Virus record (IMG/VR): IMGVR_UViG_3300045988_016629
Span: 1-40,797 of that record
Length of the DNA: 40,797 nucleotides
Direction: 5' to 3' (one strand)
Source of the DNA: a virus
Part shown: piece after piece, positions 13,752 through 18,591 of the stretch
Layout: every line of letters begins with the position of its first letter
Position numbering within the stretch: position 1 is the first letter of the stretch
Made by a program: the position numbers and the translations under genes
The notes under the pieces: model-generated
Seen by the model: the letters and a program-made list of their open reading frames with translations, nothing else
The model's database searches: none
What the model was told of the DNA's origin: nothing

Positions 13752-14831
13752 ATGGCATCATACCGTAAACGCTCAAACGGATGGGAATATCGTATAAATT
13801 ATTACGATTCTACTGGTAAACGCAAACCGAAAACTAAGGGTGGTTTCAGGACTAAATCAGAAGCTATCAAGGCTGCTGCTGAGATGGAACTTAAGCTACA
13901 AGATAACGTCAATGTCGATGAAGATATTACTCTATACGATTATTTTAAACAGTGGTGCGAGGTTTATAAGAAGCCAACTGTTTCAAAAATAACTTATAAG
14001 GCATATATCAACAGTCAGCGCAAGATAGAGTTATTTTTCGGCGATAAGAAGCTAAAATCTATTACTGCCACTGAGTACCAACGTGTGCTGAATAGTTACG
14101 CTAAAACTCATGCTCAAGATACTGTCGAGCGTTTTAATGTGCATGTCAAGGCGTGCATTGAAATGGCTGTGCATGAAGGATATATCAAGCGTAACTTTTG
14201 CAAGTTTGCTAAAATAAACGCAAAGAACAAAGGGCGTGATATTGAAACGAAATTCCTAGAGGTCGAAGAATACGAGCGATTGATCTACGAGACAAGCAAG
14301 CATCCAGAGTATGCGTCTTATGCAGCACTCTATATCATCGCCAAAACTGGTATCCGTTTTGCTGAGTGCCTGGGCTTAACAGTGGATGATATCAAACGAG
14401 ATACTGGCATGCTATCAGTTAATAAAACATGGGACTACAAGAACAATACTGGATTTATGCCCACAAAAACAAAAAGCAGTATCCGAGAGATACCGCTTGA
14501 TGATGAATTTATAAATTTTATTGACCAACTGCCACCAACCGATGATGGTAGAATACTACCCTCACTATCCAACAATGCAGTTAATAAGACATTGCGTAAA
14601 ATCGTTGGTCGTGAAGTACGTGTCCACTCATTAAGGCACACTTACGCTAGCTATTTAATTGCCCACGATATTGACTTGATTTCTGTATCGCAAGTTTTAG
14701 GGCATGAAAATCTGAACATCACACTTGAAGTTTACGCTCATCAATTGCAAGAGCAAAAATCACGCAACGACGAAAAGATAAAACAAATGTGGACAGAATG
14801 TGGACGAAACGCTTTAAAACCGCATGGTTAA
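13752..14831 (+). CDS. int: Tyrosine site-specific integrase
   Basis: 359 aa with an N-terminal SAM-like/arm-binding region. The C-terminus HSLRHTYASYLI ... LGHENLNITLEVYAH gives the R..HxxR..Y catalytic pattern. Confidence 0.9.
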   Translation: MASYRKRSNGWEYRINYYDSTGKRKPKTKGGFRTKSEAIKAAAEMELKLQDNVNVDEDITLYDYFKQWCEVYKKPTVSKITYKAYINSQRKIELFFGDKKLKSITATEYQRVLNSYAKTHAQDTVERFNVHVKACIEMAVHEGYIKRNFCKFAKINAKNKGRDIETKFLEVEEYERLIYETSKHPEYASYAALYIIAKTGIRFAECLGLTVDDIKRDTGMLSVNKTWDYKNNTGFMPTKTKSSIREIPLDDEFINFIDQLPPTDDGRILPSLSNNAVNKTLRKIVGREVRVHSLRHTYASYLIAHDIDLISVSQVLGHENLNITLEVYAHQLQEQKSRNDEKIKQMWTECGRNALKPHG

Positions 14832-15020
14832 AGGCTTTAAAATGTCCCCTGCCAACGAAAATATATAAAATTTGAGAATAAATGAAGCTGTAAAGACTTA
14901 ATTTTACTAAGTTTTTATAGTTTTTATTTTTATTTATTTTCGTAGATTTTTGAAAAAGGTGGACAGAATTGTGGTCACCGACATACTAATAGACGGACAA
15001 GAAACCGATCATTTGAACGG
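14787..15020. other. Probable attP region (core not identifiable from this window alone)
   Basis: Noncoding stretch between convergent int and the acr operon. ATGTGGAC occurs twice at 14787-14805. GTGGACAGAAT is repeated at 14789-14799 and 14959-14969. The segment between is AT-rich. Confidence 0.4.
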
Positions 15021-15443
15021 TTAAAAGATTTCGTTGTCCTGTTTCATTTCAGACAAGGCAGAAGCTGTTAGGGTCTTCTCTGCGAGATCTCCTTCTTCAA
15101 TCTCTTCGGAAGTGTAGTAATAGTCAATGATTGGGCATTTCTCTAAAATCTCGTTGTATGCTCCTCTGACAACGTAGATATACTCATCCGTTAGTCCTTC
15201 TGCAATATCTTCTTCCAACTCTTCTATCAAGTCGGAATAATCATAAGAGAATGTATATTTGCCCGAATCTATCCATTTCTGGACTTTTATGATTGTTTCG
15301 AGCTTCAGATTCTCTATTTTTCGCTCACCGTTTCTTACCCTAGTAATTGCTGAACGACTAATTCCTATTTCTCTTTCTAAATAATTAGCTGGTATAGCAT
15401 TGTTCATTAAAACTGTTTCAACTCGTGCAACATTTATTATCAT
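15021..15443 (-). CDS. HTH regulator, Aca-like (N-terminal HTH plus acidic C-terminal domain)
   Basis: IPANYLEREIGISRSAITRVRNGER is an HTH. It is the last gene of the acr operon, starting 1 nt after the AcrIIA5 stop. The C-terminal half is strongly acidic. Confidence 0.65.
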   Translation of the reverse strand: MIINVARVETVLMNNAIPANYLEREIGISRSAITRVRNGERKIENLKLETIIKVQKWIDSGKYTFSYDYSDLIEELEEDIAEGLTDEYIYVVRGAYNEILEKCPIIDYYYTSEEIEEGDLAEKTLTASALSEMKQDNEIF

Positions 15444-15444
15444 T

Positions 15445-15867
15445 TTAGATTACATCCTTCTTTGTCTTATAGCCTTTATAGTAGCATTTGATATCACGTT
15501 CCAATTTAGTAGCATTAATGAATCTGTACTTATCTAAATCAAGAGTATCAATCTTCTCAATGATTTTATCAAGTTTGTTCTCGATGATATCAACGAAGTT
15601 CAATTTACTTGCTTTGACATTAACAATTAAACGACCATTTTCTAGGTCATGATATTTGTTGTCTGCTGAATGATTTGATAAGCGAATTTCGTATTTTCCG
15701 AAATCTTTGTACGCACTATCTTTCATGCTAGATAGATACCATCCGTCAAGATTTTCGAAAGCTTTCTCTAATCTATCCATTTCTTGTGCGTATTCTCTAC
15801 GTTGCTTATTACTTCTGTTAAAACTGCGCTTTCTATATGAGTTATATCTACTTTTTCCGTATGCCAT
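15445..15867 (-). CDS. acrIIA5: Anti-CRISPR AcrIIA5-like protein (140 aa)
   Basis: 140 aa. The basic, disordered-looking N-terminus MAYGKSRYNSYRKRSFNRSNKQRREYAQ followed by an alpha/beta body matches my recollection of AcrIIA5 from S. thermophilus phage D4276. The locus (after lysin, followed by an HTH gene) also fits. Not verified by search. Confidence 0.65.
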   Translation of the reverse strand: MAYGKSRYNSYRKRSFNRSNKQRREYAQEMDRLEKAFENLDGWYLSSMKDSAYKDFGKYEIRLSNHSADNKYHDLENGRLIVNVKASKLNFVDIIENKLDKIIEKIDTLDLDKYRFINATKLERDIKCYYKGYKTKKDVI

Positions 15868-15889
15868 TTTTACTTCCTTCTTTCTTTTT

Positions 15890-16114
15890 TCACTTCATAC
15901 ATTTTGTCCCTTTTTTACGACCTGATCTATAAGCTGATAGAGTTACTTTCCCAGAAATGTTAATCCAGCAATCATAGTCTTCGTTGTATTCGTAAGGGTA
16001 GCAAGCTATTTCAGAATTGTTATTGTCTTTAGTTATTCCACGGACAACTTTCCCGCTCTCTACGTACACTTTTTCGTCATAAACTATGTGCCAACCATCT
16101 TTAATTTGTGTCAT
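15890..16114 (-). CDS. Uncharacterised small protein (74 aa) in the acr operon
   Basis: I prefer the start at 16112-16114 (MTQIKDGWHIVYDEK) because it has the same 26-nt RBS block as acrIIA5. The longer 88-aa ORF overlaps the upstream gene. Confidence 0.6.
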   Translation of the reverse strand: MTQIKDGWHIVYDEKVYVESGKVVRGITKDNNNSEIACYPYEYNEDYDCWINISGKVTLSAYRSGRKKGTKCMK

Positions 16115-16140
16115 TTTTACTTCCTTCTTTCTTTTTTTAA

Positions 16141-16473
16141 TTAAGCTACTTCCCAAACTTTTTCAGAAATGTAGTAAGTACCAATGCTATCACCATCAGC
16201 GATTACTTCGATACCGTAGTAAGCACCAACTTTGTGCATTACTTCGTTGAATTTCACTTCTTTAGCGAAATTCAACACTTGCACCATTGAATGTTTTCCA
16301 GCTTTACGCATTTTAGCTTCTACAGCTTGGAATTTAGCTACGCTAGTGTTTCCTTCTTTAGCATCAGCCCAAGCAATTTTCATAGCTTCAGAGATGTATT
16401 CGATAGCTTTACCACCGAATTTCTTAACTGCTTCTTTAGCGATTTTCCATGCGTTTGTCATAATTTTTTTCAT
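16141..16473 (-). CDS. Uncharacterised protein (110 aa), first gene of the acr operon
   Basis: MKKIMTNAWKIAKEAVKKFGGKAIEYISEAMKIAWADAK. RBS AGAGAGAGGT lies 7 nt before the ATG, directly downstream of a consensus promoter. Confidence 0.65.
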   Translation of the reverse strand: MKKIMTNAWKIAKEAVKKFGGKAIEYISEAMKIAWADAKEGNTSVAKFQAVEAKMRKAGKHSMVQVLNFAKEVKFNEVMHKVGAYYGIEVIADGDSIGTYYISEKVWEVA

Positions 16474-16505
16474 TTTGTTTACCTCTCTCTTTATCTTATG
16501 TATAC

Positions 16506-16535
16506 ATTATATCTTACTTGTTGACATACGTCAAC
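16506..16535 (-). promoter_or_regulatory. acr-operon promoter with overlapping 16-bp palindromic operator
   Basis: Minus strand reads TTGACG (16529-16534), a 17-bp spacer, then TATAAT (16506-11). The perfect palindrome GTTGAC-ATAC-GTCAAC at 16520-16535 covers the -35 element. Confidence 0.65.
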
Positions 16536-16564
16536 GTTTTTGATAAAGAAATTTATATTTTTTT

Positions 16565-16641
16565 GCAAAAAAAGAAAACCCTGACTAATTCAAGTCAGGG
16601 CGAGAGAGAGTTTATCGAAGACTCATCTTTTAACTGTGTCC
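16565..16641 (-). ncRNA. Candidate short transcript 3 (weak promoter TTGCTT-17-TACTAT at 16648-16676, ends at a strong terminator)
   Basis: Terminator CCCUGAC-UUGAAUUA-GUCAGGG (16579-16600) followed by UUUUCUUUUUUU. The body contains CUCUCUCUC (16601-16610), complementary to the SD region of the 110-aa gene. Confidence 0.3.
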
Positions 16642-16678
16642 ATTAATATAGTAGCATTTCTATCAAAATAAAGCAAAC

Positions 16679-16732
16679 AAAAAAACCTCCCTCAGAACGT
16701 ATCTGCGCTTATTCGTGAGAGGCCATTGATAT
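16679..16732 (-). ncRNA. Candidate short transcript 2 (extended -10 promoter, hairpin, U7)
   Basis: TGTTATAAT at 16739-16747 (minus strand), a GC-rich hairpin within 16686-16724, and a U7 tract at 16679-16685. Confidence 0.3.
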
Positions 16733-16749
16733 ATGTATATTATAACACA

Positions 16750-16796
16750 AAAAAATAAAAACGCACCAGACCCCGTAGAGTTACTGGCACTTTCCT
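16750..16796 (-). ncRNA. Candidate short transcript 1 (extended -10 promoter, hairpin, U-tract)
   Basis: TGTTATAAT at 16803-16811 (minus strand). The hairpin GUGCCAG...CUGGUGC (16763-16790) has G-U pairs only on the minus strand. It is followed by GUUUUUAUUUUUU. Confidence 0.3.
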
Positions 16797-16812
16797 AGAT
16801 ATATTATAACAC

Positions 16813-16840
16813 AAAAAAAGCCCCAGCAAAATGCTGAGGC
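16813..16840 (-). terminator. Rho-independent terminator of the lysis/late operon
   Basis: Minus strand reads GCCUCAGCA-UUU-UGCUGGGGC (one mismatch), followed by U7. Confidence 0.7.
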
Positions 16841-16922
16841 TTCGACCACTACTGCCATGATATCCCTATTGCAGTCTTAGGGGAGGTGATATACTCCTTT
16901 TTATTTTTTTAGTTTTCGTGGT

Positions 16923-17768
16923 CTATTGGTAATAGTTTACCAAGTCGTCCTTATTCCAACAAGATAGCCATACTGGACCGAATTGTCCAAACTCGAACAG
17001 TCGCCAATAATATCCGCCGTAGTATCCACCGTTGCCAGTGTCTACAATGTTGGTTTCATCACTAGAGAATGAAAAGTACATTCCAGCTTTAAAATCTTGG
17101 TCTGCTCCATCTGGAAGGTCGTTTCCATCTTTATCAACCCAGTTAACCATTGTAACCGGGATTCCGTTTTCCAAATAATCAAACCCAATTGGGCTTAAAT
17201 AATCACATTTAATCTGCCAAATGCCGTTAACGTATTTGACTTCATTGGCTTCATAGTAAGCCTTTTGTTGTGGAGTTACTGCTGTATTCGCTTGGTTTTT
17301 GGTTTGTGGTGCTGATTCAGAATAGCGCCAAACCTCGATATATGCAGGCTTATTAGCTTCATAGTAATCATTCCACGGATACGTATTGATAGCTTGCCCT
17401 GCTGCTCCTTGAGTTGAGTAGTCACAAGAAATAAAGTTTACGCTATCCATCATTACACCAACGTGTCCACCAGCTCCCCCAGAGCTAGCCATGTCTGCGC
17501 CCCACGACATCAATACGATATCACCAGTTTCAGCATTCCAGTCTTCATTACGACTTATACGATAGAAGCCATTTTTAGCAAGTTGTTGACCAAGTGTGAC
17601 AGTAGATGGTAGCCCTTGGATAGGAATGCCTGCCTCTTTTAAGGCTTGTGACATAGAACCAGAGCAGTCGGCTGTTCCGTCTGATCCATTACGTGAGCCA
17701 TACATCGAGTAGGTAAGCAGATTGCGATGATTGACAAACCAATTAACAAGAGATTGTGGGACATTCAT
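16923..17768 (-). CDS. Endolysin (Amidase_5/CHAP-like N-terminal hydrolase plus C-terminal cell-wall-binding domain)
   Basis: The sequence is typical of S. thermophilus phage lysins (GSDGTADCSGSMSQALKEAGI, HVGVMM). I prefer the start at 17766-17768 (AAGGAGGT 8 nt upstream). The long ORF reaches 17789. The ORF is uninterrupted, so there is no intron. Confidence 0.85.
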   Translation of the reverse strand: MNVPQSLVNWFVNHRNLLTYSMYGSRNGSDGTADCSGSMSQALKEAGIPIQGLPSTVTLGQQLAKNGFYRISRNEDWNAETGDIVLMSWGADMASSGGAGGHVGVMMDSVNFISCDYSTQGAAGQAINTYPWNDYYEANKPAYIEVWRYSESAPQTKNQANTAVTPQQKAYYEANEVKYVNGIWQIKCDYLSPIGFDYLENGIPVTMVNWVDKDGNDLPDGADQDFKAGMYFSFSSDETNIVDTGNGGYYGGYYWRLFEFGQFGPVWLSCWNKDDLVNYYQ

Positions 17769-17769
17769 T

Positions 17770-18012
17770 TTAGTATACCTCCTTGTCATCTAGTGGTTGA
17801 ATATAACTCAATGCTCGTTCACTGTCAGCAATCCCCTTAGTTGTTGGATCGGTAATAATTCCAAGAATAACCAAGATTCCGACAAGGGTATTAATACCCT
17901 CTTGGATGTTGTTTGGGACATGAAGCCCAAACTGTTGCAACATAAGGAACACTGCTGAAATGAGAGCTACTAGAGTAGCTTTGTTTTGTAAACGCAATTT
18001 AAAATTAATCAT
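17770..18012 (-). CDS. Holin (small, two TM helices)
   Basis: MINFKLRLQNKATLVALISAVFLMLQQF ... LVGILVILGIIT. RBS GAGGAAG precedes the ATG at 18010-18012. The long ORF starts at 18033. Confidence 0.75.
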   Translation of the reverse strand: MINFKLRLQNKATLVALISAVFLMLQQFGLHVPNNIQEGINTLVGILVILGIITDPTTKGIADSERALSYIQPLDDKEVY

Positions 18013-18430
18013 TTTCTTCTTCCTCTTCTTCATCTAATAGGATGAATTTTTCTTTATCGATGTTTAATCGAATATACCTGTCTATGTAAGGGAATTTAAC
18101 TCCCAAAGATGACAGGTTAGCCAATATACTTGAACCGTATGCAGCCATCATGGCATATATGAAAGTGTCTATCACGCTTCCTAAGTGCATGAAAATCGCA
18201 AACGGATAAAAAATTATAACAAAAAGCGCTGTAGCTAAATGACTAACAAGCCCTTTTCTAAATTTAAAGCTTGAAAGCTCGTGAAAAGCCCACGCCCTTG
18301 AAACGCCTAAAACAATATCGCTTCCAATCATTTCAATCAGTAAGCATACCGAGAGATGCTCGTCAATGCCATGCTCGTAGAAAACTCGAACGATGTTTAA
18401 AACTTCATATAAGCCATCTGGTTTCTGCAT
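18005..18430 (-). CDS. Holin (class with multiple TM helices, acidic C-terminus)
   Basis: 141 aa with several hydrophobic helices and a C-terminal EEEEEEND tail, located immediately upstream of the second holin and the lysin. Confidence 0.7.
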   Translation of the reverse strand: MQKPDGLYEVLNIVRVFYEHGIDEHLSVCLLIEMIGSDIVLGVSRAWAFHELSSFKFRKGLVSHLATALFVIIFYPFAIFMHLGSVIDTFIYAMMAAYGSSILANLSSLGVKFPYIDRYIRLNIDKEKFILLDEEEEEEND

Positions 18431-18444
18431 TGCACGCTCCTTAA

Positions 18445-18591
18445 CTACTCTTGTGTAAGTTTTGCCAAGAGTTCGTCGTCATTAACCATAGCGGCGATTA
18501 GTTCTTTTACTTTTGGTTTTAATACTTTTGGGACTCGTTTAAATGTGTAGTTATCATTAACAATATTGATGGCGAATAGTTTAGCAAACAT
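18445..18591 (-). CDS. Hypothetical 48-aa protein (below the ORF-track cutoff)
   Basis: Hand translation gives MFAKLFAINIVNDNYTFKRVPKVLKPKVKELIAAMVNDDELLAKLTQE. It fills the gap between the tail genes and the holins. Confidence 0.45.
   Translation of the reverse strand: MFAKLFAINIVNDNYTFKRVPKVLKPKVKELIAAMVNDDELLAKLTQE

Follow-up and report, generated by a model that had tools for sequence, protein, structure and literature searches.

The 40,797-nt viral DNA analysed here (positions 1 to 40,797 of IMG/VR record IMGVR_UViG_3300045988_016629; hereafter the window) carries, downstream of a lysin gene, a short noncoding array of promoter-like elements, hairpins and U-tracts, in which two units appear to be stand-alone copies of the leader RNAs of abortive infection (Abi) genes of the Abi_2 family. 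The 446 bases around the array are 100% identical to X95646, the lysogeny-module record of the temperate Streptococcus thermophilus phage Sfi21, and the phage sense is the minus strand of the window. Read in this direction, the gene order is holin, lysin, a 449-nt noncoding stretch, a four-gene operon, attP and integrase. The third operon gene, orf140a, matches AcrIIA5 (PDB 6LKF, E 1.5e-85); orf110 matches Phage_Gp111, and orf140b has a weak match to the helix-turn-helix (HTH) family HTH_3. Given the match of orf140a, a first-pass annotation made from the sequence alone was correct to label these genes the anti-CRISPR (acr) operon, and the operon marks the region as an anti-defence locus. The region 3′ of the lysin gene has been described as the anti-CRISPR-bearing variable region of these phages, and the promoter architecture found here matches that described for it (PMC13575424). 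The acr/early promoter is the best promoter match in the region (11/12 positions), and ARAGORN found no tRNA or tmRNA gene in the window.

The first-pass annotation had divided the noncoding stretch into three tandem promoter-hairpin-U-tract units with unrelated hairpins and predicted transcripts of ~45-75 nt, and this anatomy is right. Four hairpin-plus-U-tract terminators lie on the minus strand between 16566 and 16843: a terminator of the late transcript (T1), the hairpins of units 1 and 2 (the latter at 16686-16724), and the terminator of unit 3, each followed by 5 to 7 or more U (Table 1). Terminator-like sites number 8 in positions 14500-18500, against 1.9 ± 1.6 expected. A simple terminator scanner lists two of the four claimed sites, those of T1 and unit 3; the stems of the remaining two, being bulged or branched, are beyond what this scanner can handle, and on folding these two form hairpins with directly following U-tracts. 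All four terminators proposed earlier are thus borne out, two by the scanner and two by folding.

It had also been argued that G-U pairs restrict the hairpins to the minus strand, and this holds for three of the four elements. T1 folds at -18.5 kcal/mol (z -5.1) on the minus strand and at -13.4 on the plus strand, with equivalent values of -14.3 versus -3.0 kcal/mol for unit 1 and -12.1 versus -7.2 kcal/mol for unit 2. For unit 3 the order is reversed, the plus strand being the more stable (-23.4 kcal/mol, z -4.1, versus -19.1, z -2.1, on the minus strand). The plus-strand hairpin concerned, at 16567-16642 (GAGAGAGAGUUU...AGACUCAUCUUUU), is the complement of unit 3 and may be an antisense element. 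T1 is kept in nearly all relatives.

Table 1 Features of the region between the lysin gene and the acr operon of the Sfi21 window
Feature	Position	Strand	Description and basis
Lysin gene (orf288)	16923-17789	minus	Last late gene, upstream boundary of the noncoding array; open reading frame (ORF) list and X95646 annotation
T1, terminator of the late/lysis transcript	16813-16843	minus	12-bp stem (16817-16843) and U7 tract; terminator scan, fold
20-mer copy 1	16800-16819	minus	U7 tail of T1 and extended -10 TGTTATAAT (16803-16811); predicted unit 1 promoter, cassette junction
Unit 1, predicted RNA of ~48 nt	16749-16796	minus	Putative orphan copy of the Abi-alpha leader core hairpin
Unit 1 hairpin	16763-16790	minus	7-bp outer stem with conserved G.U pairs, UA bulge, ACUC/GGGU inner stem, UACG tetraloop
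20-mer copy 2	16736-16755	minus	U7 tail of unit 1 and extended -10 TGTTATAAT (16739-16747); predicted unit 2 promoter
Unit 2, predicted RNA of ~54 nt	16679-16732	minus	Putative orphan full-length copy of the Abi-beta leader RNA
Unit 2 hairpin CAGAUACGUUCUG		minus	
Unit 2 P1	16717-16722 pairs with 16686-16691	minus	Covariance model, alignments
Unit 2 P2	16714-16715 pairs with 16706-16707	minus	Covariance model, alignments
Unit 2 P3	16692-16705	minus	Within invariant block CAGAUACGUUCUGA; covariance model, alignments
Unit 2 U7 tract	16679-16685	minus	
Unit 3	16566-16676	minus	Promoter-like element, predicted ~75-nt RNA from ~16641, terminator
Unit 3 weak promoter-like element	TTGCTT 16671-16676, TACTAT 16648-16653	minus	17-nt spacer
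Unit 3 tract CUCUCUCUC	16602-16610	minus	
Unit 3 terminator stem	16578-16601	minus	Followed by U4CU7; terminator scan and fold
Start of the acr/early transcription unit	16506-16573	minus	Junction, A/T-rich UP-like stretch, -35, -10
Palindromic junction TTTTTTTGCAAAAAAA	16558-16573	minus	Conserved in relatives
acr promoter -35, TTGACG	16529-16534	minus	Within palindrome GTTGACGTATGTCAAC (16520-16535)
acr promoter -10, TATAAT	16506-16511	minus	Promoter scan
Operon orf110, orf88, orf140a, orf140b	15021-16473	minus	Downstream boundary of the array; ORF list

The units are joined by a 20-bp direct repeat, TATATTATAACACAAAAAAA, which the first-pass annotation had taken for a terminator tail followed by an extended -10 element. 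The repeat is exact. Its minus-strand sequence, U7-G-TGTTATAAT, joins the tail of a terminator to an extended -10 (TGTGTTATAAT). Its two copies are the sole pair in the 40.8 kb even with three mismatches allowed; the expected count is 0.04, and two or more copies occurred in none of 100 shuffled sequences. The motif TGNTATAAT occurs four times in the whole window, twice within the 20-mer copies.

We compared the Sfi21 intergenic region by BLAST with 80 related loci obtained by similarity of the lysin protein. Homology begins and ends at the U-tract/-10 joints, with breakpoints that include 20-mer copy 1. A joint motif, defined as five or more T, up to 4 nt, and then TGnTAnAAT, was found 41 times in 30.7 kb downstream of the lysin gene in 37 related loci, not once in 143.6 kb upstream, and once on the opposite strand. 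Since the motif is confined to the lysin-downstream region, we conclude that the 20-mer is a conserved cassette boundary. The conservation that had been taken to argue for function is that of a cassette junction and not of an element in its own right. The content of the cassettes varies: in some relatives T1 is followed directly by unit 3, others possess a single joint with unit 2 alone, and still others carry different inserts. The array is like phage morons in this respect, which are promoter-gene-terminator cassettes between modules that are present or absent among relatives; the Sfi21 array likewise lies between the lysis and early/lysogeny modules. The cargo of a moron, however, is a protein gene, whereas that of the Sfi21 array is predicted to be a noncoding RNA of 45-75 nt.

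Given that inter-phage homology breaks exactly at the joints, and that these flank different contents, including an ORF-bearing cassette (orf49) in TP-778L, the U-tract/-10 and palindromic TTTTTTTGCAAAAAAA joints could serve mainly as short homologies for shuffling moron-like cassettes, with the content in Sfi21 being incidental. This would account for the mosaicism, but not for structured, covarying RNAs that are tied one-to-one to Abi subfamilies (see below), and it is compatible with the explanation that we prefer rather than an alternative to it; as an explanation of the array we think it improbable. In our preferred explanation, too, the 20-mer would be the standard cassette joint and would also provide homology for swaps of cassettes between phages. 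The depositors of TP-778L annotated terminators and -10/-35 signals in the lysin-downstream region. One related locus (L267, 12332-12399) has a chimeric cassette in which a 5′ module of a type that we call U5 (GGCUUUGAGAAUAGCCUUCAUAGGUAGAC) is fused directly to a unit-2-type RNA, which suggests that 5′ modules and terminator modules recombine independently.

Unit 2 folds into an outer helix, P1, that encloses the hairpins P2 and P3, followed by a U-tract. In copies from relatives the block CAGAUACGYUCUGA is invariant, and the flanking stems change in a compensatory fashion. A first alignment (A1, made with MAFFT) placed P1 out of register and gave a weak RNAalifold result, and the copies were realigned by a covariance model of the unit 2 type, R1. 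This model was trained on 28 copies from viral contigs, 26 of them not linked to an abi gene and none from the test set described below, and it matches the window at 16679-16740 (56 bits, E about 2e-10). In an alignment of 36 distinct unit-2 copies (A3), pairing extends to 94.6% of cells and double changes are seen at 7 of the 13 pairs, as compared with at most 47% pairing in slid controls, figures to be read knowing that many of the copies were obtained via the invariant motif and that the alignment was fitted to the model.

Some unit-2 copies lie ~20 nt upstream of the Shine-Dalgarno (S-D) sequence of an ORF of 294-321 aa that matches both Pfam Abi_2 and PADLOC AbiD, and which we refer to as Abi-beta. 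We assembled 41 beta loci from GTDB genomes by protein similarity alone (35-82% amino-acid identity), from many genera that include Streptococcus, Veillonella, Tetragenococcus, Enterococcus, Staphylococcus, lactobacilli and Fusobacterium. R1 found one sense-strand match ending 15-110 nt upstream of the abi start in every one of the 41 loci, with E ≤2.4e-5 in 39 of them. In the alignment of these leaders (A6), 98.6% of cells are paired, compensatory changes are seen at 11 of the 13 pairs and all three helices covary, P3 included; pairing in slid controls was at most 50%. Unit 2 shares P1 enclosing P2 and P3, the CAGAUACGYUCUGA block and the U-tract with these leaders, and from its first base to the U-tract it is identical at 51 of 55 positions to the RNA upstream of an Abi_2 gene in a Streptococcus metagenome-assembled genome (L470). 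Leader subclasses follow protein subgroups, with unit 2 of Sfi21 falling in the "AUAUCAAUGG" subclass. In the Streptococcus agalactiae prophage Javan17, an RNA very similar to unit 2 lies between the lysin gene and an annotated abortive-infection gene (Pfam Abi_2, 6e-42). We conclude, from sequence and covariation, that unit 2 is homologous to the leader RNA of Abi-beta genes.

Three further observations concern unit-2-type RNAs. The satellite Javan613 of S. thermophilus SMQ-301 (L447, 2492-3216) has a beta-type RNA (R1 E 3e-7), and the next gene encodes not an Abi_2 protein but a 195-aa HELIH protein that has no Pfam or PADLOC match and is followed by a protein with an OB-fold (tRNA_anti-like). 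In phages of the TP-778L type (L001, 1963-2005; L014, 4461-4503), a derivative of unit 2 that lost P2 and P3 retains the leader and P1 and forms a plain terminator hairpin; this derivative and a complete unit-2 copy coexist in the same phage. We also considered P3 as a mimic of an anticodon loop, an idea that was dropped on inspection, given a loop of 5 nt and a pyrimidine at the would-be position 37.

Unit 1 is a bulged hairpin of the form YGYYRR-NN-NCUC[UACG]GGGN'-YYRRYRC, preceded by AAG and followed by a U5-A-U7 tract. A scan with a unit 1 14-mer returned phage copies together with loci in which a hairpin identical at 26 of 29 positions is part of a promoter-proximal RNA of ~85 nt directly upstream of a 316-aa ORF. 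This ORF matches Pfam Abi_2 (7e-38) and PADLOC AbiD (2e-53), and we refer to it as Abi-alpha. Among 43 loci found by the alpha protein (36-100% identity), the hairpin lies 30-90 nt upstream of the gene in 41; in the corresponding alignment (A4), 95% of cells pair, 6 of 11 pairs show compensatory changes and the G.U pairs are conserved. A model of this RNA type, R2, matches the window at 16755-16795 (50.6 bits, E 3.8e-11). Unit 1 is identical at 32 of 35 positions to the RNA upstream of Abi_2 genes in two loci (L339 and L340), and the difference in the stem is a compensatory change from C-G to U-A. In some long-form relatives the alpha hairpin is found inside an RNA of ~200 nt that is closed by a covarying helix, in a non-terminator position. 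We conclude that unit 1 is, by the same kind of evidence, homologous to the Abi-alpha leader hairpin. The satellite Javan537 of Streptococcus salivarius K12 (L490, 495-590) has an Abi-alpha-like gene (40% identity) behind an RNA of alpha architecture, which comprises a closing helix of GGAGA...UCUCC, a UACG-looped internal hairpin and a terminator; the sequence of this hairpin has diverged, and R2 gives no match on this RNA.

The two RNA types are specific. Abi-alpha and Abi-beta proteins are 26% identical and both match Pfam Abi_2 and PADLOC AbiD, yet R2 has no match in 41 beta loci and R1 none in 44 alpha loci; neither RNA type accompanies the other Abi subfamily, and the association is one-to-one. 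Neither type is in Rfam: at the gathering threshold no Rfam family matched the window, any of 10 relatives or any of 7 Abi-linked loci, and permissive scans gave sub-threshold matches only, including terminator-driven ones. The alpha and beta leaders of Abi_2 genes are thus two well-supported RNA motifs that are absent from that database.

In the phage, these RNAs stand without a toxin gene. A tblastn search with both Abi proteins gave nothing below E 0.1 in the 40.8-kb window, and no Abi_2 homologue lies within 3 kb of the lysin gene in the 80 related loci. With no Abi_2 gene in Sfi21, units 1 and 2 are orphans, and the locus is not a complete Abi_2 toxin-antitoxin system. Unit-2-type RNA is present in 104 phage records, mostly of virulent S. 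thermophilus phages (Abc2, DT1-like, D1811), and in 19 of the 80 lysin-anchored loci; unit-1-type RNA is present in 10 records (Sfi21, Sfi19, Sfi11, Sfi18, CHPC919 and O1205) and in 9 of the 80 loci. Every copy lies behind a U-tract and TGnTAnAAT junction, confined to the lysin-downstream region. As for the genes themselves, those of the alpha type are frequent in streptococcal satellites and in the lysogeny modules of prophages, and those of the beta type adjoin prophage lysis genes. Resident mobile elements may therefore be targets of the phage RNAs no less than the chromosome is.

The AbiD/F (Abi_2) proteins belong to the most widespread abortive-infection systems, and AbiF is viewed as an ancestor of Cas13. 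In S. thermophilus, AbiD is the most prevalent accessory defence, being found in 28% of 263 strains in 15 homologue groups of narrow activity (PMC12322248), and its protection is low to moderate (PMC11514479). The RNA upstream of abiF in Clostridioides difficile phage phi027, RCd22, has its own sigma-A promoter and a terminator with occasional read-through into the toxin gene, and it neutralises the AbiF toxin in cis and in trans by direct binding (PMC12373285). Like the Sfi21 units, the published AbiF/AbiD leader antitoxins, which are type III-like, consist of a short structured RNA and an intrinsic terminator (PMC12373285, PMC13064643). Those RNAs bind and neutralise a HEPN toxin, also in trans, and the Sfi21 units appear, from the comparisons above, to be homologues of RNAs upstream of Abi_2 genes. 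There are also differences: AbiF/AbiD systems carry the toxin gene, whereas the Sfi21 RNAs stand alone; and RCd22 has two copies of a 33-35-nt motif, whereas the alpha type is one bulged UACG hairpin and the beta type a three-helix junction with the invariant CAGAUACGYUCUGA block.

Since the leader RNA is the antitoxin in this family, also in trans, we reasoned that the phage most likely uses units 1 and 2 against an Abi toxin. The array between the lysin gene and the acr operon would be made up of three self-contained mini-genes, each with the previous U-tract fused to its promoter, a short structured RNA and a terminator of its own. Units 1 and 2 would be toxin-less copies of the leaders of two Abi_2 (AbiD/F, HEPN) subfamilies of streptococcal prophages, satellites and chromosomes; transcribed by the phage during infection, they would keep the matching AbiD/F toxin of a host, prophage or satellite bound and inactive. 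Such decoy RNAs would adjoin the protein anti-CRISPR genes in the anti-defence region of the phage. The RNA homology and structure, the one-to-one Abi association, the lack of an abi gene in the phage and the promoter and terminator motifs all point in this direction, and we lean towards the interpretation that units 1 and 2 are orphan antitoxin RNAs that act as anti-Abi decoys. Of the functions that the first-pass annotation had listed for the array, RNA-based anti-defence is the one favoured by the homology of units 1 and 2 to Abi_2 leader/antitoxin RNAs.

Several observations weigh against a decoy function. Firstly, a matching toxin was not found in S. thermophilus itself: no Abi-alpha or Abi-beta gene was found in the GTDB representative of the species, in records of its phages or on its plasmids, and S. 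thermophilus does not appear in the top 120 homologues of the unit 2 cognate toxin. Named organisms with the closest relatives of that toxin are Streptococcus gordonii, Streptococcus uberis and Streptococcus suis, and alpha-like genes are found in satellites of Streptococcus vestibularis and S. salivarius. Secondly, short-form unit 1 is reduced to the hairpin, whereas the native alpha RNA also has a closing helix and a separate terminator, and unit 2 alone folds no better than shuffled sequences (z -0.9). Thirdly, a phage copy in one locus (L022) is identical to the Abi-linked RNA of another (L320), and separate captures, not selection within phages, could lie behind some of the covariation seen in phage copies. 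Fourthly, Rfam abiF (RF03085) has no match at E up to 10 in an Abi-linked region (L087, 4050-4300) or at 16540-16870 of the window; since that motif fits neither the alpha nor the beta RNA, we regard these as distinct motifs for other branches of the family. Lastly, the order lysin-RNA-abi in Javan17 allows a simple origin of the units as relics, by loss of abi.

If the units are relics, ancestral lysin-RNA-abi cassettes lost their abi genes, and the leaders persist as a stack of terminators against late read-through into the early/acr genes, with no function in trans. Javan17 still has such a cassette at the same position, all four elements are credible intrinsic terminators, a unit 2 derivative without P2 and P3 exists as a plain hairpin in L001 (1963-2005), and units are freely lost or swapped among relatives. 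The role of a multi-terminator insulator, which had also been proposed for the array, is compatible with these data. However, T1 and the unit 3 terminator alone would suffice for insulation, and an insulator has no need of the near-consensus extended -10 that is kept in each unit. The invariant P3 block and P2 are not required for termination and are nonetheless kept in ~100 mostly virulent phages, and the alpha hairpin is kept in a non-terminator position too. Invariant loops and promoters are thus left unexplained, as is the accumulation of several different cassette types specifically in the lysin-acr region. The main weaknesses of the decoy interpretation, which include toxins not found in S. 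thermophilus, a truncated unit 1 and an easy origin as relics, are the reason why we hold it with limited confidence and why we rate a combination of relic and insulator as unlikely but by no means negligible.

RNA mimicry by phages has precedents. Blower et al. reportedly described in 2012 a pseudo-ToxI in Pectobacterium phage PhiTE, a toxin-less look-alike of a type III antitoxin that lets the phage escape the cognate Abi toxin, and the effective copies are said to have arisen as escape mutants. The logic would be the same RNA mimicry that we propose for the Sfi21 units. ToxI, however, consists of tandem 36-nt pseudoknot repeats that are processed by ToxN, whereas the Sfi21 units have no tandem repeats and the toxin family is HEPN Abi_2; a search of 16400-17000 with TRF found no ToxI-like array of ~36-nt tandem repeats, the only direct repeat there being the 20-mer joint. 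Moreover, unlike the escape mutants of PhiTE, RNAs of the Sfi21 type are a standing part of >100 phage genomes, and a promoter is predicted for each of them. Camara-Wilpert et al. are said to have reported in 2023 RNA anti-CRISPRs (Racr). These are solitary repeat units, often found beside acr genes, that imitate the RNA with which a defence effector is partnered. The Sfi21 units are likewise small phage RNAs beside acr genes, and with AbiF regarded as the ancestor of Cas13 the parallel is a close one, but the RNA that they would mimic is an Abi leader and not a CRISPR repeat. Mimicry of tracrRNA or CRISPR repeats had been considered because of a few striking short matches and was dropped as a candidate, since alignment scores to four S. 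thermophilus repeats, a weak test, were at or below shuffled means.

What is new here is the identity of units 1 and 2 as orphan AbiD/F leader RNAs of two subfamilies; a search of the literature found neither a paper on toxin-less AbiD/F RNAs in phages nor a phage counter-measure against AbiD/F. A defensome study of S. thermophilus from 2025 states that the anti-defence factors of these phages other than Acr proteins are still unidentified (PMC12322248, PMC11514479). If the RNAs do neutralise AbiD/F, they would account for why AbiD acts narrowly and weakly on dairy phages, and antitoxin-RNA mimicry would have a second natural example besides pseudo-ToxI, one that is standing and widespread and not selected in the laboratory. 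Noncoding stretches beside acr genes would then be worth mining for anti-defence RNAs, and a concrete rule for starter cultures would be to use each Abi subtype against phages in which its cognate RNA is missing.

Unit 3 differs from the first two units. Its TTGCTT-17-TACTAT element and its CUCUCUCUC tract were located correctly in the first-pass annotation, but the -35 agrees at only 3 of 6 positions and the element failed the promoter scan. Many S. thermophilus phages carry the unit in nearly the form found in Sfi21 (type a). In a second type (b) the middle part is homologous and the terminator covaries. In 16-mer scans both types were confined to one place, that of the final cassette ahead of the palindromic TTTTTTTGCAAAAAAA joint and the early/acr promoter, and neither had a gene-linked context elsewhere; other cassette types can occupy this place in relatives. 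A comparison of 16567-16641 with the PyrG leader (RF02371) gave 30.4 bits (E 0.026), below the gathering score of 65, with the similarity mostly in the pyrimidine tract and the terminator. Unit 3 is probably a final insulator before the early/acr promoter.

It had also been proposed that the CUCUCUCUC tract of unit 3 pairs with the S-D region of the first acr-operon gene, and more generally the units could be small RNAs that base-pair with mRNAs of the phage or host. The units have 5′ leaders that are single-stranded and in part conserved, and there is a 17-nt inverted repeat, 76% complementary, between 16474-16490 and 16603-16619. However, the best duplex of unit 3 with the acr leader (-14.0 kcal/mol) is at the level of chance, the mean of shuffled sequences being -13.0 ± 2.8 and 310 of 1000 shuffles being as good, and 2415 of 4076 phage windows (59%) bind unit 3 as well as the acr leader does, or better. 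Nor do the CUCUCUC tract and a GAGAGAG S-D sequence co-occur consistently in relatives: type-b unit 3 lacks the tract and yet precedes GAGAGAGG S-D sequences in some phages. For the invariant 14-mer of unit 2, we counted 7 phage complements with up to 3 mismatches on both strands, one of them unit 2 itself, against 3.4 expected, a number reached in 9 of 100 shuffles and hence not above chance. We conclude that the anti-S-D pairing is not supported, and consider a base-pairing role for the units very improbable.

A third noncoding cassette type, distinct from units 1 and 2, is found 3′ of the lysin gene in relatives. It is ~150 nt long and has the core GACUGAUUNNGUUCAGCGCC. RNA with this core also occurs in ~20 other viral contigs, as a promoter-proximal, terminator-ended leader ~100 nt upstream of a gene for a 122-129-aa HELGH protein, which by its motif looks ImmA/IrrE-like. 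Loci with this RNA, in one context or the other, include L042 (at 4150), L052 (at 4075), L134, L192, L496 (at 10660), L519, L532 and L507. Given that the RNA recurs as a leader before the HELGH gene, this third type, too, is an operon leader copied without its gene. A broader proposal, which we put forward tentatively, is that the stretch from the lysin gene to the early/acr promoter in phages of the S. thermophilus group might be a modular island of RNA anti-defence, consisting of gene-less leader copies, each taken from another operon of a prophage, satellite or host, that would titrate the respective leader-binding proteins. Its cassettes so far may comprise the leaders of two AbiD/F subfamilies and that of an ImmA-like protease, with unit 3 and the types that we call U4, U5 and U8 as further candidates, shuffled via the U-tract/-10 joints. 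Such an island would be the equivalent, in RNA, of the protein anti-CRISPR locus next to it.

Two inverted repeats flank the array. The perfect palindrome GTTGACGTATGTCAAC on the minus strand overlaps the -35 of the strong acr-operon promoter and is likely an operator for the HTH protein orf140b, which would then be Aca-like; relatives have other palindromes at the equivalent position. At the other end, a hairpin, GGAGUAUAUCACCUCC (16879-16900), lies just after the lysin gene's stop codon. A T-run follows this hairpin only on the plus strand, and it looks like a terminator of the opposite direction. The hairpin is kept in relatives and served as an anchor in the comparison of loci.

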